Below, in pieces: positions 8,831-64,000 of a DNA stretch of 64,000 nt. The stretch is from Hormiphora californensis. Its lineage: Eukaryota > Animalia > Ctenophora. The translations under genes and the position numbers were made by a program. The notes under the pieces are model-generated. The model was not told the origin of the DNA, made no database searches, and saw only the letters and a list, made by a program, of their open reading frames with translations. Within the stretch, counting starts at the first letter, position 1. Each line of letters opens with the position of its first letter. Location of the stretch: assembly GCA_020137815.1 (NCBI GenBank), contig CM035350.1:9982001-10046000 (forward strand), written 5' to 3'.

Positions 8831-9067
8831 GTTTTCCGGCAGATTTTAAGAAGAGATAAAAAACATCGAGGCAGATTTTAAGGTTTGCTGTCGGCCCGGC
8901 GCGCGAACGCGAAGCTGAAGCGAAGCCCGGACTCTCTTTAAAACGCCAAATCACGAGGAAAATGGAACGCGCGAGTTAAAGTGCGTTTCAAACGACTTGA
9001 CCTGAGCTCAGCTAGCTGCATGAATTGTGTTTTTGGCAAATTTGCAACGTCGTTTCCGTTTTTGGCA

Positions 9068-27822: not shown

Positions 27823-30192
27823 TCATTTCGAATCTGTAGCAAAGATTCCCTCTCTGCTCTTTATGGTTCGTGTTATCATTGCCGATAGGTGCCTCCCCGG
27901 ACCGACCTCCCAGCACTCTAAATCTGATCCGTAGTCGCTAGAAATGTTTTCTATCAGTCCCTGCCATCGAACCTGGGAGTAGTTTATGGGTGTTAACTGT
28001 TAGGGCCGTGTTAGGCCGGTAATATTGAAACAATTTCTTGAACTATAAAGTTGTAACTAGTAGGATAGAATCTCCACCCTAATCGTTACTCACCGGTAGC
28101 AGGAGTTGTTTGCTAAAAAGGTGGCTGATTTGTTCAGGTTCGGTGTGTGCTTGCCCTGTAACGTTACAGTACACAGGAACATGGGGCACGGCCATTGGGG
28201 TACCAACTGAAATGTTATTGGGGGTATTAAGGAACATATTGAGGTGATCATGACCTAGTGGAAGGTTCATTGTGGAGCATGGAACTATAGGACAACTTAC
28301 CCATAACGCGATGGAAGTGCTACTGATGCTGTTGACATTAGAGGGCTGTGGAATGCCCCCGCCACATTAATTCGTTTAGTTTTCACTCTTCTCTCCCTCG
28401 CCATCTCTACCACTCTCTGTAGGGTATCATCAGTTCCTGAGACGGCTACTGTGTTGGGCCAGAGGTAGTTCCCAATCACAGCAACCCCTCCTGTATCACT
28501 CTCTGCTTCAAGTAATAACTTGGATAACTGTGCGGAGAAGGAGATGTTAGTAATACGTAGCAAGGGGGGCGTTAGTTGTACATAGCAGGGGGTGTTAGCG
28601 GTTGTTTGGCACATGAACACCCCGTTATTTTGGTAACTGCGGTGGAGGGGGCCAAAACAAATAGAACACCCTGTATACCCTGTATCAACACAAACTACAC
28701 GTGTATTATACCTCTTGTGGGGGTAGTCCGATAACTGTTAACATCCCAGATGGAGGGCTATGTGAAGCATCATGCATCGCCTTGGCTCTAACTCTAACAA
28801 TACTGAACGCTAGGGGGACAGGGGTACATAGTTAGCAGCTGGTAGTCACACCGACAGTGAGTGAACAATGAATATTGGGGGTGATTAAGAGGAGTGGTTA
28901 CCATGGTTACGAAATGGTTACCATAGTTACACAACTCTAAACCTACCATCTTCAACAGTGAGAGCTCCACTGAAAGCCAGGGCTGTCAGCTCGCCCACAC
29001 TGAACCCAGCCGTGGCTACACAACGCTTCAGAACCTGGAGGGTGGAGGGGTTAGAAACACTGTAGTGTCACAGTAATTGGGAGGAGGAAGTGGGAGGCAG
29101 GAGGAATGTGTTTTAAATGGGTTGTGGGTCACGTGTTTTAAAGTCAATCAATCAATCAATCAATCATAACACCGCTCGGTGGCGGGGTGCCGCTTTATTA
29201 CTGGGCAAAATAATAATACAGTCGGACCCCGATTTAGGGACCCCCGATTTAGGGACACCCCGATTTAGGGACAGGATTTTTTTCCCCCAAAAATTTTTTG
29301 AATTTTTTTTGTGAAATTTTTTGTGAAATTTTTTTGAAAAATTTTCAAAAAGATACCAGCCACGTCCGAATCGTGCTTCGAATCAGTGAATCCCATCGCA
29401 CGCCCCGCCGCCAACCAGAAGTTTCGGAACGAACCGATACGTGATCCCCATGCGGCCATTGAATCACAAGTTCACCAAGCGTCAAAATTTCGATTCGATG
29501 GGGATCACTTTTCGATTCGTTCCGAACCGTCCAATTAGCAGCAGGACACGCGACAAGATGCACCGACTCAAAACACGACTCGGACGTGGCTGGTATACGT
29601 TTAAAAAATTTTACAACTTTTTTGCAAAATTTTACAGTACGATTGTCAATGCTTTGATCGGTGCTCCCCATAAATTTTGAGAGAAAAAGTTATTTTGAAA
29701 TTTTCATACTTCCTAACCCGGTTAGGGTGCCCCGATTCGGCATGGTATCACGTATCGGTTCGTTTTGATATATTTTTATATTTTCCTATTTCTAATCAGA
29801 AATGATCATGTCATCAATATATGAATATTGCATATATAACAGTTAGAGGTGTCTTTAGTCTTAATAATATAGCATGTTGGGCATAAAATAGGTTTTTAAG
29901 GGTCAAATATGGCTCACCCCGATTTAGTGGACACCCCGATTTAGTGGACAAGACCCTTTCCCCCGAGGCTGTCCCTAAATCGGGGTCCGACTGTATTTAA
30001 TAATGTATATATAAAAATATAAAATATATAAAAATATAAAATAAGTTTGTGAACACGGCAACTTTGAGGTGGGGTGGAGATCACATTTCATTGGCTTGCT
30101 GTCTGGTTTGTTTGTGGAGATAAGGAGAGATGAGGCACAAGAGGGGGAGACAAGTTAGGGAGAGATGAGAGAAGCACTTTGAGAGAGAAAGG

Positions 30193-30269
<77 letters not shown>

Positions 30270-31132
30270 GAGAAATAGGTAGGGAGAGAAATAGGTAGGG
30301 AGAGACAGGTAGATACAGGGAGAGAGATTATAAAGGGATAGGGCCGAAGGATAGGAGATGTTGGCAGTGAAAGTAGTAGAGATAGTCAAGATAGCTGAGA
30401 TGGTCATTTGATTATTTCCATTGAGAAATTTGTTGGTGACCACTCGTCGGTCTCGTTGCTATAGCTATGTGGGAGGCTTTGTAAAGTAAGTAGATATCTA
30501 GTTAGTAAATTTTTAAAGGGGTTAAAGAAGTAGTCCTTGAGATGGCGTTGTGATGTTTTTTTATTATTATTATCTGTGTTGAGGGTGGCATTTGCACATG
30601 GCACGATATGATTATACAGAATAGGGCCTATGTAAGCAGCCTGTGGCGCTTACCTCAGGTTTTTCAGTGGCGCTTACCTCAGGTTTTTCAGCTTTAAGCC
30701 ACTCTAAAGCTGCTAATGATGTACAGAGGACAGCTGGTTGGCAATAGTATGTTAGTTTTAGGATCTTTTCAGGTCCCTCCAGACATAACTTTAGGAGATC
30801 ATAGCCCAAAACAGAGCGGGCAGTTTTGAAAATCTCTCTAGCTCCCGGGATATCCAGATATTTTCTTGGCATTCCTACATACTGGGCGCCTTGACCTGGG
30901 CATAGGATTCTTGGTAAAAACTCGGTTTACATCAAGCCTTGTGTAACTGTAATGTGTGGTTTGTTTGTATAACCCCGAACCCGGCCCGTTTGTAAGATAG
31001 TTTCACGGTTCACCCTCACGGCTGAGTCATACCTGGAAACAGTATAGCCACTGGTTTCTCTGTCTCGCTAGATAACGCCCTTCTAGCACACCCTCTCACA
31101 GGAAGTGCCACCGCCGACCTGAACAGTGCCAT
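27823..31132 (-). CDS. MCAT: Mitochondrial malonyl-CoA:ACP transacylase; 3' end approximate
   Basis: Arg-rich presequence MALFRSAV..., LFPGQGAQYVGM, LGYDLLKLCLEGP, CQPAV, catalytic GFSVGE, VAGAFHSPLM, VYCNVT, PVRW, EVGPG; one apparent +1 indel near 28312. Confidence 0.92.
29144..30644 (-). mobile_element. 5'-truncated copy of the right-edge LINE in MCAT intron 2
   Basis: Near-identical to 58743-59470, including the (TTGA)n tail, but interrupted by a MITE. Confidence 0.93.
29219..29993. mobile_element. Tc1/mariner/pogo-type MITE, 23-bp TIR CAGTCGGACCCCGATTTAGGGAC, TA TSD
   Basis: Perfect TIRs; the empty site is visible in the paralogous LINE copy at about 58812. Confidence 0.93.
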
Positions 31133-34658: not shown

Positions 34659-36227
34659 ATGTCAAACACCAAAGTGGAGGGCATCGATAGCCCAAAGGAT
34701 CCTGAAACCAAGCCGGCGCCAAAATCAGCCGATAAGCCGATCTCCAAGAAAGAAATGGAGGACCGAGCCGCAGCTGTGATCGTCAAACTGGTATCGTTGT
34801 CTGCCCAAACCCACCCGCTCGCTCAAAAAACGCTCCTAGCCTACAAATTTGGTGCGAGTATAACAACCAATATCACCAACCTGGGTAAATCCTCCCGCCC
34901 TGAAGCTTTGGAGGCCGCGGCCTTCCTGGGTATAATACAAGATGCCGATATCTCTAGCTCTGGTGGTAAGAGACCGGCCAAAAATAGGCAAACCTTGAGT
35001 CACCGGATCATCAAGAAGATAGAAAGCCTGTTCCCGGCTCGGTGTACTGACTGTCCCGCCTTATACCAACCCGTTTTTGAAGAGACACCCATCTTCACAT
35101 GCTGGTCATGTTACCGTCACTCCCATGACTGTGAAGTTATCAGTGAGCTCGGAGAGGCCATCTCAAAAATTGGAGGAAGCAATGGCTTTAAATGGCTCTG
35201 CCTGGAATGTGCAGAAAAAACAAGTCTTTCACTCAGAAAGTCACTGACCCTCTACGAAATAGGACGAGACCCCCCAGAAGATCATAAAGATGAAAAGAAT
35301 GATCCAGCTGGAGAATATTCACAATCCGACACCATCGACCTCTCCCAGATTGATGCCTCTCAACAAGTGGAGAAAGAAGGGGAACCAAAACCAGTGGAGA
35401 AAAAAGAGGAACCCCCCTTTGAAAGAATCTCCAAGCCATGTAGTTTCTTCCGCAAAGGAAATTGTCGACACGGTCCAGACGGGACCAAGGAAGTAGACGG
35501 ACAGACCTGTCGATATGAACACAAAGCTCCAGGAATCAACCCTACCCAACCACCAGCCGGAGCCGTGGGCCAGCCTACCGAAACTGACTGTAGGGTGTTT
35601 GTTCAGTATGGACAATGTGAGCACGGAATCAATGGCAAAATCAAAAGAGGTGGAAAGGTATGCCCAGGAAGACATCCTAAAATTTGCAGAAAGCTTAGGA
35701 AGGGAGCGTACGGGAAAAACGGATGCAAAAAAGGATCACAATGCGAGTTCCTTCACCCAAAACTTTGCAGAGGATCTGAATCTAAAGAGAAGGTCTGCCC
35801 AAACCCCACCACATGTAAGTTCTTTCACACAGAAGGAACTCGGCTCGGAACACGACCAGTGGCACCTACTACTGGAAGGGAAACAACTACACAGAGGAGC
35901 GAGGACAATAGCCCCCGTCCCCATACCCACCCCCATCCCTATACCGATGCACTGAACCACACCCCGGAGGGACCGGATTCCTCCGAAACATCGGTTTTTC
36001 TGAAATCCCTGGTAAAGGAAATGAAGGAAGGGTTCCTATATCAGGGTCAACAGATTCAACAGCTGATGAAAGCCCTAATCCAAAGGGATACAAGCTCACC
36101 GGTCAAACCCTTCACCATGGACCACTCAGGGATTATGCCAGACTACATGATGCTACCAACAGAGAGAATAGGAGAGCTACAGACACTCCATCCTCTGACT
36201 CACCGATCTCAAAGGTCCTTCTACTAA
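34659..36227 (+). CDS. LINE ORF1 with PHD-like finger and four CCCH-type zinc fingers
   Basis: CTDC..CWSC...H.C...WLCLEC followed by four C-x-C-x-C-x3-H motifs. Confidence 0.8.
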   Translation: MSNTKVEGIDSPKDPETKPAPKSADKPISKKEMEDRAAAVIVKLVSLSAQTHPLAQKTLLAYKFGASITTNITNLGKSSRPEALEAAAFLGIIQDADISSSGGKRPAKNRQTLSHRIIKKIESLFPARCTDCPALYQPVFEETPIFTCWSCYRHSHDCEVISELGEAISKIGGSNGFKWLCLECAEKTSLSLRKSLTLYEIGRDPPEDHKDEKNDPAGEYSQSDTIDLSQIDASQQVEKEGEPKPVEKKEEPPFERISKPCSFFRKGNCRHGPDGTKEVDGQTCRYEHKAPGINPTQPPAGAVGQPTETDCRVFVQYGQCEHGINGKIKRGGKVCPGRHPKICRKLRKGAYGKNGCKKGSQCEFLHPKLCRGSESKEKVCPNPTTCKFFHTEGTRLGTRPVAPTTGRETTTQRSEDNSPRPHTHPHPYTDALNHTPEGPDSSETSVFLKSLVKEMKEGFLYQGQQIQQLMKALIQRDTSSPVKPFTMDHSGIMPDYMMLPTERIGELQTLHPLTHRSQRSFY

Positions 36228-36298
36228 ACTGCAGGTCGATCTCACCAGCAGCTGGTGGGGAGACGAAATGGAAACTCCCCTACATCCAGGAAACACTG

Positions 36299-39235
36299 AT
36301 GTCCCCGAACTCAAACGAACCACCTGTTTTAGCAGTGGGTATCACCGAAACGTGGCTAAAAAGTTACATATCAGATGCCCAAATATCGATTCCCGGGTAT
36401 GTTACTCTGAGAGCAGATAGAGAATTGAAAGTCGGAGGAGGTTGCTTGTTATACATCAACAAAGACGTGCCGATTACAAAACAATTTTCATGGAGTGACC
36501 GCCAGACAAGTCTTGTAACCGCTTTCTCCGAACAGAAAAACCTTTTCTTTGCCTGTATGTACCGACCACCAGACACAGAGGAAAAATCGTATGCAGAATC
36601 TCTAACGAAACTCCAAGCAGAGATCAACTCGGTTATCGAGGAAAATGATGGGCGAACACCAGAAATTGTTATCATCGGAGACTTCAATCTCCCAAACATA
36701 GATTGGGAAACAATGACATTTCCATCTCAAGGAGGAAGAGAGGCTGGCCCTTACCACCAAACTCTTGAATTCGTCAACGAGAATTTCATTACACAACTTG
36801 TCACAACCCCAACAAGAGGAACGAATATCCTGGATCTGGTGTTCACAAACACCCCTGAATACTTTGCAAATGTGACAACTGTAGATAGCAAAATATCTGA
36901 CCATCGTGTAGTGGAATGTACCATGGCATACAACCCATTGGACAGTGTGGTTAACGCTAAAACTGAAGATGACCCCTTCAGAAAAGTGAAGATACATAAT
37001 GTTGACTACCTCCCAATGAAAACACAACTGTGCGAAATAGACTGGGATGGACTACTCCAGCTCTGCAAAAATGGTGATGTTTATGACCTTGAGCAGTTCA
37101 AGACCTACGTAACCCAAATCGTACGTGAAATTGCAGAAGAAACTCTCCCTGGTAAGGCCGAACACGGAAAAGAAAAAAGGCATAAACAGAGGATATCTGA
37201 ATCTTTTAAACGGAAGTCAAGAAAAATAAAGAAGAAACTAGAAGGAGATCTTGGCCCACTCAGTAAGGAAACTCTTTATGAGGAACTGGACCTCCTAACT
37301 GTCAGAAGGAAGGAGAAGATCCTTGAAAACCTAGACCAAGAGGAGATAAACGCAGTCGAAACGATAAAAAACAACCCTCGTTTCTTCTACACTTATGCGA
37401 AAAAGAAGTCTAAAACAGCTTCAACAATCGCACCACTGAGGAGACAGGATGGAAGCCTGACAACCGACAGTGCTGAGAAAGCACAGCTACTACAAAACCA
37501 ATATGTAGGAGTGTTCAGCAACCCTGCTGATGTAGACGCTGAGAAGAGCCTGACCTGGATTAAGTCGGAACCAAATCTGGTCACTGAAAACTTTGACTTT
37601 ACGCCAGAGGATATCCAGTCCGCCCTAAAGGAAATTGATCCGTATGGAGCGGCACCGGACGGTGACATCCCGGCTAGGATTCTTTATGAGTGCAGAGCAC
37701 AGCTTTGCTACCCTTTTTGGCTCCTCTGGAACAAATCAATGGAAGAGGAAGTCATCCCACCGTCTATGAAGAAACAACAAGTAGTACCCATCTTCAAAAA
37801 AGGAGATAGAACCAAAGCTGCGAATTACCGCCCCGTCTCCCTCACGTCAAATGTCATCAAAACATTCGAACGTGTCATGAAGAAACACCTTGTCCAACAC
37901 TTCGAGGAGAATAACCTATTTCCCGAATCTCAGCATGGGTTCCGGAAGCAACGGAGCTGTCTCACCCAGTTGATTGAACACGTGGATACAATCCTAAAAG
38001 AACTAAGGGAGGGAAACGAAGTCGACGTCATATATGTCGATTATGCAAAGGCATTTGATAAGGTCGACATCAGCGTTCTACTTGCAAAATTAGAACGTTA
38101 CGGTATCCGCGGAAAAGTTCTCAGTTGGATCAGATGCTTCCTGACCGACAGATACCAAACTGTCGTGGTGGATGGAAAACTCTCATCACTGGAGAAAGTG
38201 CTTAGTGGAGTTCCTCAAGGAACCGTACTCGGGCCAATACTCTTCATCATATATGTTGCGGACCTAAACTCAGCCGTGGTACACTCAACAACCAAAACTC
38301 TTGCGGACGACACTAAACTCATAAAGGGAATTGAAAGGGAAGTGTCACATGACCAACTCCAAGAGGACCTGACAAAAGTGGGAATTTGGTCGAAGGCCAA
38401 CAACATGAGTCTGAACGAAGATAAGTTTGAGGTTTTGCAATACTCTCTCAACAAAACTCAACTACTTAAACAGTTACCATTCACCCAAGACCTCCAAACG
38501 TACTATACTCCAGAGGGACTCAAGATTGAACCAAAACATTGTGTCCGTGACTTAGGGGTCCAACTGTCAGATGATTTATCCTGGGAACATCAAATAGGAA
38601 AAATGACATCTGACGCCCGAAAGATAAGTGCATGGGTATTGAGGGCCTTCAAAACAAGGGAGGAAAAAACTATGACTATCCTGTACAAAAGTCTGGTCCG
38701 CAGTAAACTGGAATATTGCTGTCCACTATGGGATTCGCCAAAGATCTCTGACATCCAGGACGTTGAAGCAATCCAGCGGAAGTTCACCAAACGGATCAAG
38801 GGAATGGCTGAACTAAACTACTGGGAGCGTTTGAAAAAGCTGAATTTCACTTCCCTTCAACGCCGCCGAGAACGTTACAGCATCATAATGATGTGGAAGA
38901 TGGCAAACGGCAACGCACCCAACAACATCGGCATCCGCTTTTATAACAACAACCGTCTCGGGAAAAAAGCGGAGGTCCCAACATGTCCCACAAACACACA
39001 GAAGTCAGTCGCGACGAAGTACCACAACTCGTTTATCTGTAGAGCGACTCGACTATGGAACACACTACCCAGGGAAGTGAACTTAGCGGAAGACCTACCG
39101 TCGTTCAAGGTACTACTAGGGGAATGGATGAAGAGATTTCCGGATCGCCCACCGGTTCTCGGATACCCAAAACAAAACAACAATTCAATCTTGGACTGGA
39201 TACGGATCGTTTCCAGGGAGGGGGAGGCTCTGTGA
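36299..39235 (+). CDS. LINE ORF2: APE endonuclease plus reverse transcriptase; the frame is open from about 35913
   Basis: ITETWL, YRPP, GDFNLP.IDW, LDLVFTN, SDH; NYRPVSLTS, QHGFR, DYAKAFDKV, SGVPQGTVLGP, LADDTKL. Confidence 0.95.
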   Translation: MSPNSNEPPVLAVGITETWLKSYISDAQISIPGYVTLRADRELKVGGGCLLYINKDVPITKQFSWSDRQTSLVTAFSEQKNLFFACMYRPPDTEEKSYAESLTKLQAEINSVIEENDGRTPEIVIIGDFNLPNIDWETMTFPSQGGREAGPYHQTLEFVNENFITQLVTTPTRGTNILDLVFTNTPEYFANVTTVDSKISDHRVVECTMAYNPLDSVVNAKTEDDPFRKVKIHNVDYLPMKTQLCEIDWDGLLQLCKNGDVYDLEQFKTYVTQIVREIAEETLPGKAEHGKEKRHKQRISESFKRKSRKIKKKLEGDLGPLSKETLYEELDLLTVRRKEKILENLDQEEINAVETIKNNPRFFYTYAKKKSKTASTIAPLRRQDGSLTTDSAEKAQLLQNQYVGVFSNPADVDAEKSLTWIKSEPNLVTENFDFTPEDIQSALKEIDPYGAAPDGDIPARILYECRAQLCYPFWLLWNKSMEEEVIPPSMKKQQVVPIFKKGDRTKAANYRPVSLTSNVIKTFERVMKKHLVQHFEENNLFPESQHGFRKQRSCLTQLIEHVDTILKELREGNEVDVIYVDYAKAFDKVDISVLLAKLERYGIRGKVLSWIRCFLTDRYQTVVVDGKLSSLEKVLSGVPQGTVLGPILFIIYVADLNSAVVHSTTKTLADDTKLIKGIEREVSHDQLQEDLTKVGIWSKANNMSLNEDKFEVLQYSLNKTQLLKQLPFTQDLQTYYTPEGLKIEPKHCVRDLGVQLSDDLSWEHQIGKMTSDARKISAWVLRAFKTREEKTMTILYKSLVRSKLEYCCPLWDSPKISDIQDVEAIQRKFTKRIKGMAELNYWERLKKLNFTSLQRRRERYSIIMMWKMANGNAPNNIGIRFYNNNRLGKKAEVPTCPTNTQKSVATKYHNSFICRATRLWNTLPREVNLAEDLPSFKVLLGEWMKRFPDRPPVLGYPKQNNNSILDWIRIVSREGEAL

Positions 39236-44923: not shown

Positions 44924-47900
44924 GGGGGGAGTTGGTCCACCTGCCACCACCTCCAATCGGTTTCCCCCGGGCAACGGGGTCACACGGAGTACCTTTTTCC
45001 CCATCCCCTTTTCCCCCTGTTCGATTTCCAGGTCCGTGTGGCCGCGGCTGAGCGTGGCTGTGTATTATAAATACGGAAAAAAATCAAAAAAGACAAAACC
45101 CAAAAACATCTTCTTGGCTAGGCGGCCCACAGTGTAACGACGCCAACTATTACGTTCCTACCCCGCCTTCTCCGGCTCAGGGTTACCAGTGGAACAGGCA
45201 TCTTCCAGCCAACTGTGGACCCCCAATGCCCCTTCATCTACTAACCCACTAACCAATCCTGTTTTTTTCCTACTAACCCCTAACCAGATTCAGTAGTAGA
45301 GCCCCGCTCCGGGGAGGATAGACTATCCCGGTCCAGAGAAGATTGATTACCCAGTTCCAGAGAGGAAAGATAGCCCCGTTCCGGAGAGGATAGTTTACCC
45401 CCCCCCCCCCCCCCCAAGAGGATAGTTTACCCTGTTCCTGAGAGAATAGTTTACCCCGTCCCTGAGAGGATAGATTTAGCCCCGTTCCAGAGAGGATCGA
45501 TTACCCAGTTCCAGAGAGGAAAGATAGCCCCGTTCCGGAGAGGATAGTTTGCCCCGTTCCTGAGAGGATAGTTTACCCCCCCCCCCCCCCCAAGAGGATA
45601 GTTTACCCTGTTCCTGAGAGAATAGTTTACCCCGGCCCTGAGAGGATAGATTTAGCCCCGTTCCAGAGAGGATCGATTACCCAGTTCCAGAGAGGAAAGT
45701 TTGCCCCGTTCCGGAGAGGATAGTTTGCCCCGTTCCTGAGAGGATAGTTTTACCCCCCCCCCCCCCCCCAAGAGGATAGTTTACCCTGTTCCTGAGAGGA
45801 TAGTTTAACCCGGCCCTGAGAGGATAGATAACCCCGTCCCTGAGAGGATAGTTTACCCGTCCCGGAGCTTTACACCATATTAATAATACACACCCGAACG
45901 CTGAAAGTGTCGGTTCGTGCTGAAAAGCTGAAAGGATGGACGGGCAAACCATCTACTAACGGACCAAATGTGGCGGTGGGATTCCGTTACCGCTGTGCAC
46001 CGGTGGCAGTGTTAAGACCCCCAAACCCGGCTCTTCTTCTAACAAACCGATGACTATGTATACACAGTGATTGGTTTGAAACTCACCCCCAAAACTTACT
46101 CATCTTTTCGACATGAGTACTAACACCCGTAAACCAAGGAAGGTCTGGTCTAAGCAAGAGAACCTAGACTTGGTGTACTGCTACTACAGCAGCAACCCAG
46201 GCACATCCGGATCCTGGAAGAGGCTCGAACGCCTATGGGAAGACAAGGGACACGACCCATTAACAGGTGCCAAACTCTCAAGCCAGTTCAGATCGAATAG
46301 AGAAATCTGGACACATGGTAACACCGCAGGAGATGGCTGATCAGCGAATGCTAGCAGGGCTAGCAGCATCTGGCCTAAATATACTCCCGGAAGTGGACCT
46401 CACGGTGAATGATAACACTGCGGGTCCGAGTACCTCGGCCAATGGGGACACCGACACCCCACCCCCACCACCACCCCCAACTAGAGCGCCACGAACGAAA
46501 TGGACCACTGAAATGAACATTACGCTCGTGTTCATCCACTCGTACTCACAACCGGACAAAAGAGGAGTATGGACCCGAGTGGAGGAAAGGTGGTCAAAGA
46601 CAACCTACCCTTCGAAGACTGATGACCAGCTTAGATCCCAACTGAGATCTATAACTCAGTCGGGACTCCTTTCACCACAGAAGCTGATGGAAATAAGAAC
46701 AGCGGCCATAGCCGACCGTGAAGAAACTGAATCGGCACGACAGGCTGTGCTAGAAGAAAACCCACCCCCAGAAGCCATTGAACCCCCCACAAACCCAGTG
46801 GAAGAGGAAGGGCCATCACCGAACCCGGAAATCAGGGAGCAGTTCAAGAAACTACTCGAGGAACCAAGCTCCATCAAAGTCACTGACCTGAGACAGGTCC
46901 CCTGGGGGAAACTACGAGTGGCAATTGACCGACTCAGCCCGGTAATCAAGTCTTTTGAAACCCCAGACCTTACCACGTTGAACACACTACTGATGGCTGT
47001 AGCCCACGTGGTCCGAGAACAAATGGGCATTGAGGCACCTAGTGAAACTACCAGTAACTCCCCCAGAAAGAACAAGCAACCGATGTGGCTGCGACGACTT
47101 GAAGAAAGTGTTGCCAAACTTCGCTCAGACCTCTCCAGGCTGACCGAAATGAGCAGAGGAGCCACCCAGAAGTTCCAAACTATAGATACTATCTATAGAA
47201 GATACCCACTCCTGCCCAAGAAAGGCTATAAGCAAGTAATAGAGGAGGTCAAACAGAGATTGCTAGCGAAGGCCGGAAAGATAAGACGATACAAGAAGAA
47301 GCAGCAGACCTTCGCTGACAATAACCTGTTTCAGAACAACCAGCGCAACTTCTACAGAAAGTTGGAGAAACGAGGATCAGACCCCATACCGCATGAATCT
47401 ACACCAGAGGACCAGACGAGGACACTTAACTTCTGGAAAGACATATGGGAGAATGACGTCGGCCACAACACTGAAGCGGAGTGGTTAGATGACATCCAAG
47501 AGAACTTTGAGGCGGTCAACCAGCAAGAGGAATTCCAGATCACCACGGAAAGAGTGTCTGCCCGTGTGAAGGGAATGACCAACTGGTCGTCCCCAGGTAT
47601 AGATGGCCTGCATGCCTTCTGGATCAAGCACACAACTTGTCTCCATGGACGGATAGCTGAGCTGCTCAATGAAAGTCTTACTACAGGCCAGGTCCCAGGA
47701 TGGATGACTGAAGGCAGAACATACCTGCTGATGAAAGACCCCAAGAAAGGAATGAGCGATCCGGGGAACTTCAGACCCATAACCTGCCTCCCAAACCTCT
47801 GGAAGTTATATACAGGAATGCTGTCAGAAGAGATATACCTACACCTCGACGTAAACAGACTCTTCCCTGAAGAGCAAAAGGGTTGCCGCAAGAAGAGCAG

Positions 47901-50900
47901 GGGATGTAAAGAACAGTTAGCAATCGACAAACTTATCCTTCGTCATTGCAAACGTACAAAGTCTTCTCTGTATATGTCCTACATCGACTATCAGAAGGCA
48001 TATGACTCGATTCCAAACTCCTGGATCCTGAAGTCAATGGAGATGTGCAAGATAAACCCTCAGATAATCCGACTATTCGAATCATCGTTCCAACAGTGTG
48101 TTGTTAATATAGTCCAATCTGGCTCAGCCTTAGGCCAAATACACATCAAGAGAGGCCTCTTCCAAGGAGACGCCGTCTCCCCGATTCACTTTATTATCGG
48201 CCTGATCCCCTTGTCCATGCTCCTAACTAACCAAGGAAGAGGCTACACCATATCTAACCCAGAAGCTCTAGATACCGATATTAGTATTAACCACCGCCTA
48301 TACATGGACGATCTTAAGCTGTATGCCAGCTCAAAAGAGGACCTTCAGCAGCTCTTAGCAGTCACTGAGAAGTTTAGCACTGACATCAACATGTCCTTTG
48401 GTCTGTCCAAGTGCGGAGCTCTAGACATTGTGGACGGAGTCAGAAGTCGGATGCAGGGAATAAGCCTACCAAGTGGAGACAGAATACCCGAGGTGGAAGA
48501 TGGAGGCTATAAATACCTCGGCATCCTGGAGGTTGACCGTATTCTTCATCAAGAAATGAAAGCAAAGGTCAAAGCTGAATACACTCGAAGAGTCAAGAAA
48601 CTACTGTCCTCGAGCCTGCAAGGCAAGAACCTCATCACAGCAATCAACACATGGGCAATACCTGTGATCCGTTACGGTGCCGGAATACTGGACTGGTCCA
48701 CTTCCGAAGCCAGTGGACTAGATATGATGACTAGGAAGATCCTGAGAAGAGGAGTCATCAAGAGCAACAGTGACATTGACCGGCTGTATGTTAGCAGGAA
48801 ACTGGGAGGAAGGGGTCTCCAGCGGATTGAAGATGTCATTGTGAAGGAAGAGACAGGACTTGTGACATTCTTCACCAAGTCCACGGACCCCAAGATCTGT
48901 GCCCTCCACACGGCGATGCAGACTGAGAATATGCTCACTGGACCTCCAGAAGACGCAGAAGCCCTGAAGGAAAGATTACAGGCGGAACTTGTAGAGAAAT
49001 GGAAGAGCAAAGTGCTACATGGAAGATTCCTGAAGCAACTGGAAGAAGGGGGATGCGACCCTGATTCGACCTGGGCCTGGCTCAACAAAGAGAGCCTCAG
49101 CAGATATACCGAAGCCGATGTATTTGCTGCCCAGGATCAAGCCATTCGCACGAACTGGATAAAAGCTGCCATAGAGAAAGAGCAAGGAGTGACTGAGAAG
49201 TGCCGTATCTGTAACGAACACAACGAGTCGGTGGAACACATCCTAAACGGATGCACGAAACTCGCCAACGGAGACTATAAGCACAGACACGATCGAGTAG
49301 CTGCCGCCCTACACTGGGGAATGTGCAAAGACTACGGATTTCCTTCTGAATCAAAGTGGTGGAGCCACTATGCAGAGAAAGTGCTCGAGAATGAGAACTG
49401 CAAGATCCTCTGGGATTTCCACATACAGACGGACAACCCCATCCAGGCATGTAAACCTGACTTGGTCCTTCTAGACAAACTAAAGAAGGAAGCGCTACTG
49501 ATCGACGTCGCTGTACCAAAAGACAGGTCAGTCTCGGACAGGGAGATGGAGAAGATCGAGAAGTACCAAGATCTTCGGAGGGAGCTCACACGAATTTGGG
49601 AACTTAAAAAGGCCACGGTCATCCCTATCGTGATCGGAGCCCTTGGCGGAGTCAGCCCCCGACTGGAGAAGTACCTGACTGCCATAACCCGCCAAATTTA
49701 TCCCTCCCAGCTCCAAAAGTCAGTCCTCTTCAACTCGATGAACACGCTCCGGAAAGTTCTCGACATGTAATACACCTCCTGAGCTGTCTCCCACTGTATT
49801 TGGATTTATTTTAATTATATTTATACCTTTCTACCCGTTCCTGCTTGCCACTAGGTTCCCCTAGATTCAGACGATTTGCTGCTTCTGTTCCTGATAAGTT
49901 GACCCTTCTTAGACTCCGTTCCAGATGGTTGGGCTTCTTTCCAGATAGTTTAGGAGGTCTTGTGCTCCGTCACTTGACTTACTTGACTTGACTTAGGGCG
50001 GATTCCACGAGTGGTATTTCCGAACTCCATGAATAACACTTCTCCACCCGACACGATCAGTCATAACAGTAGCCAATTCGGAGGTTTCCCTGAGTCCCGT
50101 GTCCCGCCTGAGTACATCCACAAAGGTCTGCTTTGGTCGCCCTCGCCTGGAATTTCCGTGGAGAGGCTCCCAGAGTATGACCTTGTTGAGCGTAAGTTCA
50201 GGGTGACGCACAGCGTGACCGGCTAGTCGGAGTCTCCTTTCCGCTATTTTGGTGCTAAGGATAGGTAGATTTCCGATACCATACAACGTGGCATTGCTCA
50301 TTTTAAGGAGGTACTGGTTTTTATTTAGTGCCATCCGTAGCATCCTCGTGTAGGTACCGTCAAGACTCCTTTCCATGTCCTTGGTGAGCGTCCAGCTTTC
50401 GCACCCATACAACAGAACTGTTTCAACCGTTGCTACAAAAAGTCTGGCCTTGATCTTATCGTTTAGTTTCGAATTCCAAACAGTCCTAAGCCCGTGACAC
50501 GCGTTCCATGCTTTCGCCTTCCTAACCTTAATGTCCCTCTTAGAGTCCCTTACCCACGATCCGAGATATTTGAAGTCCTCACTCAACTTTATCTTAGTGC
50601 CATCGATACTGTGGAGAGGACCGGGGTCTGGTATACCCTCAACCATGAACTCTGTTTTCGCCCGGTTTATCTCGAGACCCACCTCCTTACAGACACTCTC
50701 TACCTCCCGCATGATAACGCCAAGATCCTCCACTGAGTCTGCTAGGAGAGCTACATCATCAGCAAAGTCTGTGTCAGTAACCCTCTCCGCTCGTACTCTT
50801 CTACTCCGGGCTGGTTTCAGTGTGAATCCGATATCAGGGTGCCTCTCCAGTGCTGTTCGCATACAGTAATCGAGCACAATAATAAACAGGTAGGGCGCTA

Positions 50901-53777
50901 GAGTATCCCCTTGCAACACCCCGGCGACTATTTCAAATATATCCGTGAGGCCGTCTGGGGTGAGGACCTGAGCTCTTGTATTACTGTACATCCACTGGAT
51001 GAGGTCGACAATCTTCCCTGGGATGCCATAAGCCCTGAGAACTTTGATCATGCGCTTCCGGTTAATGGAGTCGAAGGCCTTAACGAAATCCAAAAAGGCT
51101 ACTGCCAGTGGTAGTTGTTTGGCAGTAGCTCCTTCGATGAGTCTCCTAAGCGTGAGGATGTGGCTGACTGTGGACCGTTCCTCTCTAAAACCGTTCTGGG
51201 AATCGAGTAACACAGTCTCGATGTAAGGCCGTATCCGGTGAAGTAGCATACGGTTCAGGGTTTTCGCAACTATAGAGGTAAGTGAGATGCCTCTATAGTT
51301 TCCGGGTTGAGAGAGGTCGCCCTTTTTCGGCACAGGGACAATATTACTCAGAGTCCACTGTTCCGGAATTCCCTTTCCGCACAAGGCATCGTTGCAAAAG
51401 GTCAGCACGAGGTCATCAATGTCGCATCGCTTCAAAATCTCGGGTGCGATGGCATCATTTCCGTAGGCCTTATCCTCCTTTATCCGATCCTTCGCCTTCT
51501 TAAATTCCTCTTCAGTAAAGGGACCATCGTAGATATCTGCTCGGGGAAGCACTTCCGGGATGTCTTGATCTACTTCATCCGGAGGTTCTGTCCCGAGGAG
51601 CAACTGGAAGTGGCTGAACCATTTGGCTTTCCGATCGTCTGGGGACGTTCCTTCAATTTGGATGGGGTGTTTGTCCTTCCTCCCAGAGATTTCGTTTACT
51701 AGCCTCCATGATTCCTTCGTCTTCGCGTTCCGAGTGGCTCTCTCTACACTCTTGATTTTCCTATCGAGATGCTCTTCCTCGACGGCTAGGTACGCTTCAG
51801 TGAGTGCCTCTTTGCCTTCTTTCACAGTGGAACGTGTTTCTTCTGAAGGTGAGGTAGCCTTCCGTCCAGTACCGTCCGAGAGAAAAGTCCAGAGTCTTCC
51901 CTTGTTCTTCCGGAACCTAACGTTGGCTACTTCCAATCTGGTCTCCTCAACTGTCTCCTGGAGCAGCTCTCCATTTCTACTGGTATGTTGATGGAAATAC
52001 CACCCGAAGCCAGAGTCCTCCCAGCCAATTCTGGCGTTGAAATCTCCGGCAACGACAAGGAGGTTATGAGCTGGAACAGTATTGATGTAGTCCCTGAGAT
52101 CGTGGTGAAATTTTTCAACTTCCTCTACATTCGCACACTCAGTGGGCGAGTAAACCGAGATGACTGTCAGTTTCGGATTACCGACCAAGGTAATGGCTAG
52201 AATTCTATGGGACACAGCTCGTATCTCGCAAATGAGCTTCGAGTACTCAGTTCTCATCAGAACTCCAACCCCTCCAACCGATGCCCCTGCGCCATTGCGC
52301 CAGGCTGTAGATGTGATAAGAGTTTCTCCTGGCCCAGCCTGAATCTGCCTGACTGTGTCTGCGTGGACAATGCGGTGTTCCTGCAAAGTGATTATGCCCA
52401 AGCCATTGTCAGCAAATTGGTAAACCAGCTCTTTTAACTTTTCCTTAACACGGAGCGTTCGACAGTTAAATGTTCCAATGCGTGTATTAAGTCGAGTCAT
52501 AGCTATTCATATTGTTTTTCTTGGTTGCAGTATCCCAGGTGGGTCACCACTTCACCTGGCTGAGTCACTTTCAGTTCATCAAAACAGCATGTATGGCTGA
52601 GCTGGATAGACTGTTGGTGAGCAGTTGTCTAAGCAGAGGTCTGGTCCACAAAGACAATATAATGTCAGTGTGGGGACTCCCTATGCTATTGCACTGTTTA
52701 GCCCACGCGGGCAATGGCCGCTTACGCAGCCTGCGTGGTTACCACTCCTAGGTCATCGGGTGCCAAACCGACCGGGACCTAAGTGCATCCCCCTACTGGT
52801 GAGTCTTTTAAATAACAGAGACAGTAGAGAGCAGGAGCTCCGTCACCATGAGCTTTAATTCCCCTGTATTTATTTTCTCTTACTTTAACCCATATGTACA
52901 TTGTTCAACCTACCCTTATGTACATTGTTCTACCTACCTTTACTCCGCAGGCCCTCCGGGCCCTCAGATCCAACAGGATCCGGGCTCGGGGGATTTAACC
53001 CTGTTTCCACATGGGACCTTACGGCCCCATGTGGGAGTGGTGCGTGTTGTGGACCGAGAGAGAGAGAGAGAGAGAGAGAGAAAAGAGAGGGAGAGAAAAA
53101 AGAGAGGATGATTGTTTCTGTTGACTGTTGAAAACACAGACAAACGTACACTACATATATACCCCACAATCCCGAACATTATTCTCTCTGTGTATCCCAT
53201 TATTCTCTCTGTGTATTTCTCTAAGATACAATATCTACATTCTGGTAATGAGAGAGATGGCAATGCTCGGATAGAGAGAGATAGAGATGGCAATGAGAGA
53301 GATAGAGATGGCAATGCTCGGATAGTAGGAATGTCCAATATTGAGGGAGTTTTCTGTAATCCTCCCTCTCTATCTCTATTATAATACCTGCTTTATATAG
53401 TCTCTAAAGCCCCCTCTCCCCTTTCAATAGTATCAATGTTTTGGTTACGTCACCCAAGCCCCCCCCCCCCAAGTCCCAACCCACAAATCACATTATAATC
53501 GAATAATAGCATGGCCAGGGGTGTATGATTTATGAGTCATTATCCATCATTATGAATCGCTATTATTATCATAATAATGAGGCCCAATATATAATAATGT
53601 CCCTCTGAGAGGGAGAGAGGTATAAAAAAGAGAGATAAAAGATAGAGAGAGAGATGAAAGATAGAAAGAGAGAAAAAGAGAACGAGTATTGTGCTAGTAG
53701 CCTTGAAGGAAGTACGGACAAGAAGAGCAAGCCGTAGTTATAAAGAGAGAGAGCGGGAGAGAGCTGAGAGAGAGAGA

Positions 53778-57669: not shown

Positions 57670-59018
57670 ACTCAGAGAGTATTACATTTGAGTTGTGTTA
57701 CTATGGTAACCAGCTAAAAACTCAATTGAAAAATACTGGGTTACCATGGTAACATATGAAACTCTAAAGAAGGGACTAATGTGTGTGCAGCATGATGCGA
57801 GTGTGTGTGTAAAACGAGAGAGACATGTGTTTGTTTGTGTGTGGAGATTTTGCCTTCGTTCCTCGCAGTTCGAGGTATTAGTTGTATTTTGTGATCTGTT
57901 CTTACTTCTTCTTCTGCCGGCGGTTTGTGCAGTGTTGAATCTAGTGTGTTTTTGTATTTCAAGAGAGATTTGAAGGCCCATCCTCTGAGAGAGGTCTTGA
58001 GATGCTATGTTAACAGCGGAGAATCTTCGCTATGAGTTCTTTATCTGCAGTAATCTTGTGACCCCCCTCCTCTCCCTAGAGGGGGGGTCCAGCAGCTCCA
58101 CCCTCTTCCTGGGAGGGTCCAGCAGCTCCTCATGAAGAGGGGGGTCCAGCAGCAAGAGAGAGCTTTACTTTTGTCAATGATACGCTATTTTTCCAATCTC
58201 TTTCTCTAATATTAAATTTCTGTGTTTTACTTTTAAAAAGACTTTATAATACCGACCCTCGGGATTTAAATAAACCTCATTGTTTAGCAAGACCACGTGT
58301 TTAGCAACTCCACGTGCTCTATATTTCTCACAGTCTACTATAATAATCAACAAACTCCATTCTTATATTGACCAAGAACCACTGAATGAATAGTTTACCA
58401 TCATTGCAGTTGCTCACACAACAATTCCAACAATTCCCCTCCTGGCTCCTCACCAAATAACCCTCCATCGACTTCTTTTAGCACCATGTCAATCACACAC
58501 ATCTCGGAAACACACCCAAACAACCTCGCACCTGTGAACACGATGTGCCACAGAGAGAGGGGGTCTACATCCCCCGGCCACTTCCGGTAGAGCTGCTGCT
58601 CTAATTCACACCAGCAGTTCACGTGGGGTTCACGTCAATTTCAGAGAAATGTGTGACGTTAGTGGAAAACCAGGGGTGTGTGACGCTTACTCCCTTATCT
58701 GTTCCCCCCACCCCCATGTCACCACCACCCCTGCAGTGTTCCTCAATCAATCAATCAATCATAACACCGCTCGGTGGCGGGGTGCCACTTTATTACTGGG
58801 CAAAATAATAATATTTAATAATGTATATATAAAAATATAAAATATATAAAAATATAAAATACGTTTGTGAACACGGCAACTTTGAGGTGGGGTGGAGATC
58901 ACATTTCATTGGCTTGCTGTCTGGTTTGTTTGTGGAGATAAGGAGAGATGAGGCACAAGAGGGGGAGACAAGTTAGGGAGAGATGAGAGAAGCACTTTGA
59001 GAGAGAAAGGGGGGAGAG

Positions 59019-59095
<77 letters not shown>

Positions 59096-59229
59096 GAGAA
59101 ATAGGTAGGGAGAGAAATAGGTAGGGAGAGACAGGTAGATACAGGGAGAGAGATTATAAAGGGATAGGGCCGAAGGATAGGAGATGTTGGCAGTGAAAGT
59201 AGTAGAGATAGTCAAGATAGCTGAGATGG

Positions 59230-62200
59230 TCATTTGATTATTTCCATTGAGAAATTTGTTGGTGACCACTCGTCGGTCTCGTTGCTATAGCTATGTGGGA
59301 GGCTTTGTAAAGTAAGTAGATATCTAGTTAGTAAATTTTTAAAGGGGTTAAAGAAGTAGTCCTTGAGATGGCGTTGTGATGTTTTTTTATTATTATTATC
59401 TGTGTTGAGGGTGGCATTTGCACATGGCACGATATGATTATACAGAATAGGGCCTATGTAAGCAGCCTGTCTTTTTGATCGCTCTAGTCGGAACTCGGGA
59501 ACATCGAGTATTTTAATTGGGAGACTAGTGGATCTAGTGTAATACTGGGGCGCAGAGGTGGGGGATGTTGGAGAGAATAGTAACTGGATGTTGTCAGGAG
59601 CAACTTTTAGTCTGGTTTTTTGGATTAAACATAGGATTGATTTTGTGATGATGTTGGGTAGTGCTAAAAGTTTGTGGGCGGTGAAGATAGGTTTAGTGTG
59701 GGAGGGGATGGTACCTGATTTGCTGTCGTAGAAGAGTCTGGATTTGCTATTGAGGGCCCTGACACCTTTTTTTTGGGCCGAGAATAAGGGTTTCAGTGAA
59801 TTCTGGGATGCGGTTCCCCAAACGGATGCACAGTAGAGCAGATGTGATTCGATAAAGCTGTTGTAGAGGCACTTGAGAGACTTGAGAGGCAGTACTCCTC
59901 GCATTTTGTATAAGATGCCTGCGTTGCGACCTACTTTTGCGGCTAGTGCTGTGACATGATGTTTCCAGCTTAAATTAGAGTCTATGATTACCCCGAGGAA
60001 CTTAGCATGATCGGTCGCTATTATTTTGACGCCTCCGAGATGGATTTGTAGTTCGGAGACTCGTGATCGATCCCTGTTGGTGAATACGAGAAGCTTTGTT
60101 TTGCCTATATTGAGTTTAAGCCCGTTACCGCCAACCCATCTATCCACCGCGAGAAGAGCTCGGTTGACTCTCTCTTCTAGCTCTTCGAAACTGTCGGCTG
60201 ATATGATGAGATTGGAATCGTCCGCGAATATGAAGAATTTGGCTAAAGGAACTGCAGCTGGAAGATCATTAATATAGATAAGAAATAGAGTCGGGCCCAG
60301 ATTTGAGCCCTGGGGAACGCCGTGTTTTATGACACGATCTTCGGAGTTATTGTTATTGACACAGACATATTGCATTCTTTGACGCAAGTAAGACGAGAAC
60401 CATTCTAGGTTGCTACCTCTGACTCCGTAATGCTCTAATTTATGTAAGAGAAGACGGTGATCTACCATATCGAAGGCCTTGCTAAAATCTAATAGGAGTA
60501 GTGCGGTTACTTTTTTGCGTTCGAGGGCTCGGATAATGGCATTTTGTGCTTCCAGAATAGCGTGCTCGCAGGAATGTGACCTTCTGAAACCATATTGTGA
60601 TGTGAATAAAATATTATTAGTGTTTAAGTGCTTCGTAAGGCGGGTTAACATAATTTTTTCATAAATTTTTGAGAATGTGGGAAGTAGAGAGATTGGTCGG
60701 TAGTTGGCGATATCTGTGCGTGAGCCCTGTTTGAATAGGGGAATGACTTTGGCTTTCTTTAATTTACTGGGGAAAATACCCTGGGCGAGGGATGCCGCTA
60801 CTGTGTGTTGCAGGATATTGGAAATGGGATCTACTGCGGCTTTTAGAGGTGCTATTCCCGTGTCGGAGGTTGCTCGTATTTTCAGCGACTTAACAGTCTC
60901 TTTTATTTCTAGTACTGTTACGGGTTCTAGCGACATGTTAGATTTACATCTTGTATCTGGCGAGAGGCTAGGTTGAGAGCAGGAAGGGTTACTGGAAGAA
61001 TCTTTTAGTTTCTGTGCTATGTTGGTGAAGTAGTCATTGAACGCCTCAGCTATTTTCGTGTTGCTGGTTATAGTTTCGCCTTCATAGTCAATCTTACTGA
61101 TCTGAGCTTTGGCCTTACGTGTTCTATTCAGGAGCTGGTTTATTAATTGCCATTGCTTTTTGCAATCACTACTATGACGTTCCATGTACTGATTGTAGTA
61201 GCGGTGTTTTGCAATACGTATGTGTTTATCTACAAACTTTTTCATACGTGTGTAATAAAATTTGTTTTGAGGAGAGGGATGGAGGACAAATTTGCTGTAA
61301 AGGCGATTTTTGCGGGCACACGCACAGCGCAGCCAATCAAGAATCCAGGGTTTATTCTCCCGTTCCTTGCGTCGCTTTGGTTTACTAAGGGGAAAGCATT
61401 TATTGTAGACACGTGTGTATTCTTCATAAAATTTATTGAATTTTTGGTCTGCATCTTCTACTAGGTTCAAAAAGTCCCAGTCGATATTATTGATTTCATG
61501 GACAAAATTCTGGGTGGCCTGTGTAGTGATAGGACGGGTGTCGGCGCTGCATTGCCCTAACATTTTATGGATCTTTTCGTTATCTGTGAGAAAAGTTGCA
61601 AATGTAACTAGGTGGTCCGACAAATCGACATCTGTGAGAACTCCTGATTTCGTTACAGTGTGACAGGAGTTTGTAAATATGTGGTCAATAAGGGTTGCCG
61701 AGTGGTCGGTTATGCGTGTGGGGCGAGAGATTAGTGGTGAAAAGCCAAACTCATTGAGTTTATTAACAAAGTTCGAACAAATATCCACTTTTCCATAATC
61801 TAAGAGATTTAGATTACTATCGCCTGCTAAGATGATAACTTTATTTCTGTGGCGATGGAGACCCGAGAGAATGTTTTCAAATTTATCAAGAAAAGCGGTT
61901 TGATCAGAATTTGGAGACCTATAGTAGCTAGTTATAACAATATTCTTGCCATTGTTTCGGCAGATTTCCAGGGTTAGAAATTCCCCTGAGTTATAACTTG
62001 AATTGTCGCTAAGTTGATCTAGGGATTTAATGTTTAACAGATCGCAGAAATTTTTGTTAACGTAAATAGCAAGACCGCCTCCTTTACCACTGTAATCTGG
62101 CGGGAATCTGGGTGAAGGGCTGATGGAAACCTTCCAGAGCCAGCTCCTCGCCGCTGAAAGGGAGATTAGAGGGGTTGCAATTGGTCTCGTTGAAACAAAG

Positions 62201-62896
62201 GACGTCGAATTTCCTGAAGAAGCTCAAGTTCTCGTTAATATTTGTAATGCTCCCTGCTAAAGACCTGATGTTAGCAGAGAGGACTTGAAGCTCGCCAGTT
62301 TTTTGAGTTTTGATGGCGGTGTGTGAGCGGTAATTACAGGATCTCAGAATTTCAGATGGTATTTCCCAATCCTCCGCGGATTCATCCGGAGAGGTATGCC
62401 CTACATAGTTAATGAAGTTTTTGTGGTCGTACGGATTGAACGAGCTGGAGTTACGGCAGATGCGAGTGATGGGCGGGGCAACGTAGCCCGGAAGAACGTC
62501 TCCAGCGCACGTCCTACAGCCTAGCGATCCCATGGAGCATTTGGGATGGGTGTAACGCTCACAGAGCCAGCATTGGCTCATCTTTGGGAGATTGCCAATT
62601 TTTTTGCAGATGTGGCAGGTGATATTGTATAGTGCAGCGAGAGTAAGTGGAGTAGAGTTTTCATTTGTAGGGAGAAGATCTAGTGGAAGAGCTGATCTCG
62701 TACATGGTTCACATGTCCAGGTACAAGCGAGGCCAGAATTTTCTAGGATAAGTATATCAGTAGGGGCTAAATTTACACACTTAGGGTGGAACGACATGTT
62801 GCATTGGTGACAATTAACATTTTTCTTGTGTTTCCAAATTTTAGTTGTGCAGTTACTACAGTGCTGCATCTGATGTTGGTAGTAGTTATTATACAA
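59230..62896 (-). CDS. LINE ORF2: two PHD fingers, APE and RT; one frameshift near 62095
   Basis: Cys-rich N-terminus, ANIRSL, FNET, GGGLAIYV (shifted frame), YRSP, GDSN, RPTRIT..SATLIDHIFTN, SDH, NYRPISLL, DFSKAFD, GVPQGSNLGP, FADD. Confidence 0.9.
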
Positions 62897-63172
62897 ATAT
62901 TATACGTTATGTAAGTAAAGTAATGAGGCTGGGGTGTTACTGAGAAGATTAGGGAACCTTATGTTCAGTAGCACAGCAGCCTAACAAAAAAGAGATAGGC
63001 TAGGCTAAGTTGAGAGTATTAGAAAGAAGAAGGTGGGGGTTAGGATTGGGGGGGGGGGAGGGGTTGAGAAGTTGAGTTTGGAAAGTTAAGTTAATTTGAT
63101 GTTGTGGGGACAGCAGGTTATAAAGTGAGCGTGTTGTGAATATAAAATGATGATTCAGATGACCCGTTGTGA

Positions 63173-64000
63173 TCAGCCTACATACCCCTGTATGTCTCTG
63201 AGTTCCGCTCTGAGTGGCCAGAGGCGCCAGCCCTGCCATCTACCCGGCCCACCATAGAGATGGTCGGTAAGGTGGATGGCGATGGACCTCGATAACCTAC
63301 GCTTGACGGTGGGGAGCAGGTGTATACCGTGACGTTCGTCCAGTATACGACTGCCCCTGCACCACAACCCTCTTGCTTCCGCATGAGTGTCAAGGAAGAG
63401 AAGGTTGGGGAGAGCACCTGATAACTCAAAAAGTTCAAAGTTCGTGTCCTTCACCTCATAATTGACCCATTTTCCAGTGGTGCGAGATGCCGTTTCTAGG
63501 AGAGAGTTTATCACGAACGTGGTGCCTGGATGTTTAACGCAAAGGCGCCGGATCATCGGACCCACTATCTCAATTAGAGACCATGCTCGGTGACCATATC
63601 TTGTGATGTCGTTGATGCCAGCCGAGATGAATACTGTATCAGTGCCCTCAAACATGTGGGAGTATTTGTCCAGGTCAGTTAGCTGATAGAACTGACGGTA
63701 TACCACCTGTAGACCTGGAATACCAGATGGGAAGTCCCTATCGATGCCACTGAACATAGAATCCGACAGTATTAGAACCCGTTTAGGAGGGCGCCGGGGA
63801 GTCTCGGGTTCTTTAACAGGGGGAACACGGGAAGGGGTGTCGGAGATGGGGATGGGGGACAGTTTACGGAACGTCAGTGAGATGCGGGGCTCCTTCACTG
63901 CTGGCTCCCTGGGAATACAGTGCTCCCAGTTCTCTTGGCATTCCCGGGAGAAAGCATACCCTGAACCATGATGCTGGGGATGGGTGAATGTGACCTTCGC
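63173..64000 (-). CDS. LINE ORF1 C-terminal part: AlkB-like 2OG-Fe(II) dioxygenase end fused to an SGNH esterase-like domain
   Basis: Frame open from 64000: HGSGYAFSRECQENWEHCIPREPAVKEPRISLTFRK, then VLILSDS...AGINDI...D..HGIHL. Confidence 0.75.
   Translation of the reverse strand, partial: AKVTFTHPQHHGSGYAFSRECQENWEHCIPREPAVKEPRISLTFRKLSPIPISDTPSRVPPVKEPETPRRPPKRVLILSDSMFSGIDRDFPSGIPGLQVVYRQFYQLTDLDKYSHMFEGTDTVFISAGINDITRYGHRAWSLIEIVGPMIRRLCVKHPGTTFVINSLLETASRTTGKWVNYEVKDTNFELFELSGALPNLLFLDTHAEARGLWCRGSRILDERHGIHLLPTVKRRLSRSIAIHLTDHLYGGPGRWQGWRLWPLRAELRDIQGYVG

Follow-up and report, generated by a model that had tools for sequence, protein, structure and literature searches.

The DNA stretch analysed here ends within the ORF1 of a LINE retrotransposon from the ctenophore Hormiphora californensis, and the relatives of this ORF1 join an AlkB-type dioxygenase and an SGNH esterase in a single protein, an architecture that we regard as almost certainly real. 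The stretch, hereafter the window, comprises 64,000 nucleotides (positions 9,982,001 to 10,046,000 of contig CM035350.1, assembly GCA_020137815.1). A first-pass annotation had proposed such a fusion, conserved and linked to ORF2, and the protein relatives, genomic loci and alignment described below all agree with that proposal.

The window holds the 3′ half of ORF1 on the minus strand (63173..64000), a frame of 275 aa that is open at the window edge and whose letters agree with those quoted in the annotation. It is 81% identical to the C-terminal part of a 568-aa relative, P0009; the remaining ~290 aa are predicted to lie beyond position 64000, and contigs in runs X2 and X4 extend ~500 nt past the window end. 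All on the minus strand, the frame comprises the C-terminal strands of an ALKBH2/3-like AlkB domain (63866..64000; Pfam, ALKBH3 match and alignment of relatives), a Pro-rich linker (63782..63865; family median 32 aa, 22% Pro) and an SGNH hydrolase domain (63251..63781; Pfam and predicted fold) with DS, GxND and GxH blocks. The distal iron His is residue 27 and the two 2-oxoglutarate Args of the RxxxxxR motif are residues 39 and 45, while the position of the HxD motif falls beyond 64000. Taken alone, the domain matches of the window are weak: residues 9–45 match positions 151–194 of Pfam 2OG-FeII_Oxy_2 (E 0.011) and residues 93–209 match Lipase_GDSL_2 (E 0.005), both under the curated cut-off, and residues 8–51 match human ALKBH3 (E 5e-4). 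The C-terminal AlkB signature that had been noticed by eye becomes firm because two relatives continue the same protein upstream, P0009 and P0001, the latter being 82% identical across all 275 aa of the window query and running on through the HxD motif.

Word-based searches returned three and five relatives, respectively, each with a precomputed PF13532 domain. P0009, a cluster mate of P0001, matches PF13532 with 56.7 bits (cut-off 31.2) and is likely a complete ORF1, with a low-complexity start, a long helix, the AlkB domain, the Pro-rich linker and the SGNH domain; complete ORF1s among the relatives show the order coiled coil, ALKBH2/3-like AlkB, Pro-rich linker and SGNH hydrolase. In a profile search over 1.84 billion representatives at 50% identity, from which the best 150 clusters were used, both domain profiles (built from these same proteins) were covered over at least 70% of their length in 113 clusters, and partial matches to both domains were found in 138; the 12 AlkB-only members among the best 150 stop in or just past the linker. 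The upstream HxD motif, for which the annotation had advised a search, is present in 136/136 aligned relatives.

Downstream of ORF1 and on the same strand, a spacer of ~300 nt with a C-rich run (62870..63172), which individual contigs of both X5 and X6 span, leads to an ORF2 of ~1212 aa (59230..62869), in which Pfam and alignment to relatives identify two PHD fingers, an AP endonuclease (APE) and a reverse transcriptase (RT); the annotation had noted neither the PHD fingers nor the frameshift described next. In the assembly this ORF2 is split into two minus-strand frames, with the PHD fingers in 62084–62899 and the endonuclease-RT in 59230–62223, by one extra base at ~62093. Because this base is absent at full depth in all three DNA runs, and because the frames read across ~62093 align in register with relatives as a single ORF2, the frameshift is probably an assembly error or private to the window copy. 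The endonuclease and RT score above the Pfam cut-off, and their catalytic motifs are intact in the window and in two loci, L022 and L024, recovered from metagenomes.

These loci come from one pattern scan of JGI metagenomes, which gave 90 matches, five of which were fetched (L021–L025). L022 (6935 bp; ORF1 of 688 aa, ORF2 of ~1235 aa) and L024 (6865 bp; ORF1 of 594 aa, ORF2 of ~1235 aa) are whole intact LINEs, each with a 5′ UTR, an unspliced ORF1, a ~550-nt spacer, a PHD-PHD-APE-RT ORF2 and a 3′ UTR; L021 holds ORF1, a spacer and the N-terminal 368 residues of an ORF2 of this type. Linkage to ORF2 in other copies, which the annotation had put forward as a check, was thus found in 3/5 loci, the other two (L023 and L025) ending too early, ~300 nt past ORF1; it is on these three loci and the window, rather than on the 113 clusters, that the linkage is based. 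The ORF2s of the window, L021, L022 and L024 are 36–47% identical to one another and 24–32% identical to the ORF2 of the other CR1-like element of the window, and the corresponding ORF1s share 30–42% identity. L025 holds the SGNH part only and adjoins an integrase-like frame. The 5′ UTRs of L022 and L024 each contain four tandem 18-bp repeats (L022:4–117 and L024:115–187) of unrelated sequence, possibly promoter monomers.

One might still suppose that the AlkB-SGNH frame belongs to the host, or to another element, and lies beside a LINE by chance, given that the 5′ half of ORF1 lies outside the window and that 2/5 loci show no ORF2. We consider this very improbable and largely refuted: order, strand and type of ORF2 are the same in the window and three loci, the two loci devoid of ORF2 stop inside the expected spacer, and the frame recurs in more than 100 clusters. 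A spliced host gene, which the annotation had named as the outcome that would speak against its reading, is at odds with the single unspliced frame observed in 4/4 loci with a whole ORF1. Moreover, two clusters combine full-length members with broken ones that are almost identical to them and lie on other long contigs, as expected of transposon copies, and the family is mobile.

Further evidence of mobility comes from the 3′ end of the element. The 3′ UTR (58743..59229, minus strand) contains a (TC)n tract and ends in (TGAT)n repeats, and the window holds a 5′-truncated second copy at 29148..30644 (minus strand), with ~730 bp of the 3′ end at 98.5% identity. The region common to both copies is 58743–59470, that is, the tail of ORF2 and the 3′ UTR, and both have the (TGAT)n tail. 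The near-identical truncated copy previously announced at 29144–30644 therefore stands as a recent insertion, but it amounts to only ~730 bp of the 3′ end interrupted by a 775-bp unrelated insert (29219–29993), and it lacks ORF1; it shows a recent 5′-truncated insertion and is uninformative on AlkB. The insert itself, which presumably is a Tc1/mariner-type non-autonomous element, has terminal inverted repeats and a TA duplication and, lying inside the truncated LINE copy, is younger than it. At the 5′ junction of this copy, a minus-strand frame (~30645–30900) that we take to resemble malonyl-CoA:ACP transacylase terminates, beside a likely splice donor, in a tandem duplication of 24 bp. A conserved 3′ hairpin, suspected by eye, was unsupported by folding z-scores for four 3′ ends (−1.1, 0.04, −1.08 and −0.47).

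Several other features lie in the window. Minus-strand exons at 5189–7790 belong to a host gene for an AAA ATPase, presumably PEX1-like, and to a DUF4200 coiled-coil protein; a palindromic element of ~430 bp with nested inverted repeats occupies 9059–9489. An RT element that consists of one ORF with a zinc motif at its C-terminus, and which we take to be R4/Hero-like (46264–49770, plus strand), faces, 3′ end to 3′ end, an RTE-like frame for endonuclease and RT (49993–52506, minus strand). The other LINE mentioned above, presumably CR1-like by motif (34656–39235, plus strand), is an apparently intact two-ORF element whose ORF1 has CCCH zinc fingers according to weak Pfam matches. This ORF1 type is missing from Table 1 of a survey of LINE ORF1s (PMC4120745).

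The AlkB domain of the family was analysed in an alignment of 136 proteins of at least 380 aa (out of 170, some near-duplicates included), with a median pairwise identity of 34%. All five catalytic residues (H-D-H-R-R) are kept in 131/136 proteins; by column, the His and Asp of HxD are both found in 136/136, the distal His in 99% and the two 2-oxoglutarate Args in 99% and 100%. The set of lid and substrate residues (Arg, Tyr-x-Tyr, Tyr, Glu) is kept in 127/136. Searched against the PDB, the family profile matched ALKBH3 (E 4e-23) and ALKBH2 (E 1e-21), the next matches, NMAD-1 and ALKBH8, reaching only ~1e-3. The structural model of P0009 has a mean pLDDT of 68, with most of the AlkB region at 74–93; among the matches listed by Foldseek, ranks 1–25 are ALKBH2/3 (E 1e-15 to 3e-12), followed by ALKBH5 (3e-9), and the top 12 PDB matches have a TM-score of 0.65–0.70 by target and an rmsd of 2.1–2.8 Å. 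The domain is thus predicted to be a double-stranded β-helix with a nucleotide lid, nearest to ALKBH2/3, and the ORF1 dioxygenase is probably active.

Two features set the family apart from ALKBH2/3. The asparagines of the NxY and RxN motifs are replaced, by Thr in 111/136 proteins (Asn being kept in 16) and by Ser in 132/136, respectively; chemistry or specificity may therefore differ from those of ALKBH2/3. The Ser form also occurs in the viral AlkBs that we fetched, which were themselves selected by that motif. Besides, the basic insertion and the RKK loop of ALKBH2, which underlie its preference for duplex DNA, have no counterpart in the alignment of the family with PDB sequences and, given this role, their absence points to putative single-stranded substrates. 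With a median pI of 5.95, the AlkB domain is mildly acidic and on its own no obvious RNA binder.

The C-terminal domain of the window ORF1 has a confidently predicted fold (pLDDT 91.6) that matches SGNH hydrolases (Z 16.9, rmsd 2.5 Å, 167 aligned residues), which bears out, by the structural route that had been suggested, the SGNH blocks read by eye. The four SGNH residues (S, G, N, H) are kept in 121/126 proteins covering the domain. The replacement of the block-V Asp is also confirmed, the window having a His three residues ahead of the catalytic His; at this DxxH triad position the family shows Asn in 62, Asp in 39, Arg in 11, His in 8 and other residues in 3 of 123 proteins. Of the two residues specific to transposon esterases, H191 and S228, the position of the former, read by eye without a direct alignment, is occupied by Ser in 117/136. 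The esterase domain is basic, with a median pI of 9.0. The structure of the zebrafish ZfL2-1 esterase is not among the fold matches listed for the window domain; it is domain-swapped, according to the accessible sections of its description (PMC3905857), and the swap may lower its score.

Between the four loci with a whole ORF1, amino acid identity is 46% in AlkB, 44% in SGNH and only 29% N-terminally of them. At four-fold degenerate sites the loci agree in 25/97 cases in AlkB, which is the chance level, and in 35/111 in SGNH. As amino acids are kept while synonymous sites are saturated, both domains are, on these comparisons, under long-term purifying selection. The purifying selection for which the annotation had suggested looking is therefore apparent across diverged loci and the family as a whole, but young copies carry no such signal: in runs of the window's organism, 5/15 variants are synonymous (expected share 0.24, p 0.29). 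In some contigs of these runs the distal His or one of the 2-oxoglutarate Args is changed, which fits copies in decay. Over the AlkB-linker part (63529–63972), the summed contig depth in runs X5 and X6, which does not measure copy number, exceeds that over the SGNH 3′ part and spacer several-fold, with many variant contigs, possibly reflecting additional subfamilies or derivatives with deletions. Run X8, assumed to be RNA, yielded five short pieces less than 90% alike, none of them in ORF1, and is neutral on expression.

The host of the family is likely a ctenophore. A taxon label was found for 1/28 clusters, namely P0067 from Pleurobrachia bachei, which is sister to the closest relatives of the window in the tree, and Ctenophora is the commonest taxon in 4/5 Atlas rows, on one to three labelled members each. 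As to the origin of the AlkB domain, the closest Atlas clusters without the fusion consist of phage and giant-virus proteins (score 0.94–0.95). Against the family profile, one of 20 viral loci (L003:7920–8462) scored 92 bits, compared with 85 for human ALKBH3 and at most 76 for the others, which makes it a lead as to the donor; these viral AlkB loci were picked by motif, and the AlkB tree is unrooted and does not include host ALKBH2/3. One of the 20 viral loci (L020) was rejected as not a real match, and none of 21 candidate short stand-alone relatives scored. Searches of viral contigs for the AlkB-SGNH fusion gave AlkB-only matches at 20 loci and none in a second scan (0/67), while a further scan matched 1/16 with no locus returned; a search of prokaryote genomes with a pattern of close relatives, a weak test, gave 0/28. 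It is possible, at slightly less than an even chance in our judgement, that an old and highly diversified ctenophore LINE lineage took in an ALKBH2/3-type dioxygenase, perhaps viral, and depends on it for repair of its template in cis.

As for function, we think it on balance probable that the protein is the ORF1 product of a two-gene LINE and that its AlkB domain removes m1A and m3C from the RNA or the first-strand DNA of the element itself, which would enable RT read-through. LINE ORF1 proteins coat their own RNA and act in cis, and the methyl groups of m1A and m3C, which lie on the base-pairing side, block reverse transcriptases. The ORF1 protein would coat the element RNA, its many copies would bring the AlkB enzyme to its own template, and the enzyme would clear these lesions from the RNA template or the first-strand cDNA, allowing the RT to read through. 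Because the enzyme would be brought to its own template, the element would be favoured in cis and the active site kept by selection. An ALKBH2/3-type active site, as predicted here, favours repair of m1A/m3C damage over the erasure of host m6A marks. Against template repair, most LINEs, to our knowledge, do well without AlkB.

Alternatively, the same element could use its enzyme on host nucleic acids, either 3mC and 1mA in target-site DNA or m1A and m3C in host tRNA or other RNA. ALKBH2 matches the family as closely as ALKBH3 does, ALKBH3 is active on tRNA, and the two PHD fingers of ORF2 suggest contact with chromatin; we nevertheless judge this fairly unlikely, as the basic loop and RKK motif of ALKBH2 are missing in the alignment and a benefit in trans would be open to free-riding elements and thus presumably harder to keep over more than 100 lineages. 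A further reading is that the enzyme removes a mark written by the host on the element RNA, either m6A or m1A placed by an enzyme, so that the RNA would escape surveillance. This has been proposed for an orchid Gypsy element, a precedent that the annotation does not mention, whose AlkB demethylates m6A in single-stranded RNA in vitro, according to the accessible part of that report (PMC9289625), and the replacement of both Asn throughout the present family could alter specificity. Yet the orchid enzyme is ALKBH5-like, whereas in sequence and fold the present family is far nearer to ALKBH2/3 than to ALKBH5 or NMAD-1 and keeps ALKBH2/3-type lid residues in 127/136 proteins, which makes such erasure unlikely here. 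Finally, the AlkB fold might serve mainly as an RNA-binding or lesion-sensing module, catalysis being incidental. It does sit between coiled coil and esterase, in a class of ORF1 proteins otherwise devoid of a structured RNA-binding domain, none being known among the esterase ORF1 proteins of Repbase according to the accessible sections of PMC3905857. However, this is quite unlikely in view of the acidity of the domain and of its iron and 2-oxoglutarate ligands, kept at 99–100% per column and unneeded for binding alone.

Returning to the repair of the element's own template, the conservation of the AlkB active site across more than 100 diverged lineages suggests that, in this host at least, retrotransposition is limited by methylation of the template or the product. 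ORF1 proteins have been seen as RNA chaperones, and for those of the esterase type no structured domain that contacts RNA is known; if our reading is true, the family would add a sixth type of ORF1, and no LINE before it would have been shown to alter its own template chemically. It also offers many naturally diverged AlkB variants of compact size, which may help to remove marks that block RTs from RNA before it is sequenced.

The architecture described here is new, real, conserved and widespread within its lineage, and is a variant of the esterase-type LINEs. As a lead only, the esterase ORF1 and the PHD fingers at the start of ORF2 would place the element in the L2 lineage (L2/Crack/Daphne/Kiri) of the CR1 group, which its C-terminal motif, we assume, also fits. 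A survey of 448 Repbase elements gives, in its accessible text, PHD fingers in this position for L2 subgroup 5 and CR1 subgroup 4, and does not contain the words "AlkB", "2OG" and "oxygenase" (PMC4120745). The literature searched, with Repbase, subscription journals and genome supplements outside its scope, contained no LINE AlkB, the only retrotransposon AlkB being that of the orchid Gypsy (PMC9289625, accessible part). Likewise, "AlkB" is absent from the accessible portions of a survey of CR1-group ORF1s (PMC13343379), a review of giant transposons (PMC6431247) and a paper on LINE DNMTs (PMC5890265), and no LINE AlkB is named in those of PMC4738411.

Among known systems, the type IV ORF1 protein of zebrafish ZfL2-1, of the CR1 group, is alike in its coiled coil preceding an SGNH domain, its Ser/Gly/Asn/His residues, its basic esterase domain and its APE-RT ORF2 (PMC3905857; PMC4120745), and the sections available for esterase ORF1 proteins report hydrolytic activity, oligomerization through the coiled coil and binding to lipids or membranes (PMC3905857). 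In contrast with this type, the present family has a whole AlkB domain between coiled coil and esterase, and the triad Asp in only 39/123 proteins. Human ALKBH3 and ALKBH2 are the best PDB matches in sequence and fold, with aligned HxD..H..R..R and lid residues, but they are ~26–28% identical to the family, which has Thr and Ser for the two Asn and shorter loops, and is fused and multi-copy. SymbioLINE-Dnmt also places a nucleic-acid-modifying enzyme under purifying selection in a LINE ORF1; that enzyme is a dinoflagellate cytosine methyltransferase, that is, a writer, with no esterase mentioned in the accessible text (PMC5890265), whereas ours is of the demethylase type. The Ty3/Gypsy elements of Phalaenopsis are likewise retrotransposons with a fixed AlkB-family dioxygenase; as far as the available text describes them, they are recent LTR elements of one orchid genus in which a separate extra ORF encodes an ALKBH5-like m6A demethylase (PMC9289625), whereas the present elements are non-LTR, carry an ALKBH2/3-like domain fused within ORF1, show saturated synonymous sites and form more than 100 clusters. 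The best functional analogy is offered by the AlkBs of plant RNA virus replicases, which are related to ALKBH2/3, serve an RNA-templated replicon and repair methylated RNA, according to the accessible part of PMC2553587; viral polyproteins also head our viral fold search. There the domain lies within a viral replicase, and here in an ORF1 with an esterase. The present family is a third independent capture of AlkB by an RNA-templated replicon, after plant RNA viruses and orchid Gypsy elements, and the first that we found in the LINEs of animals.
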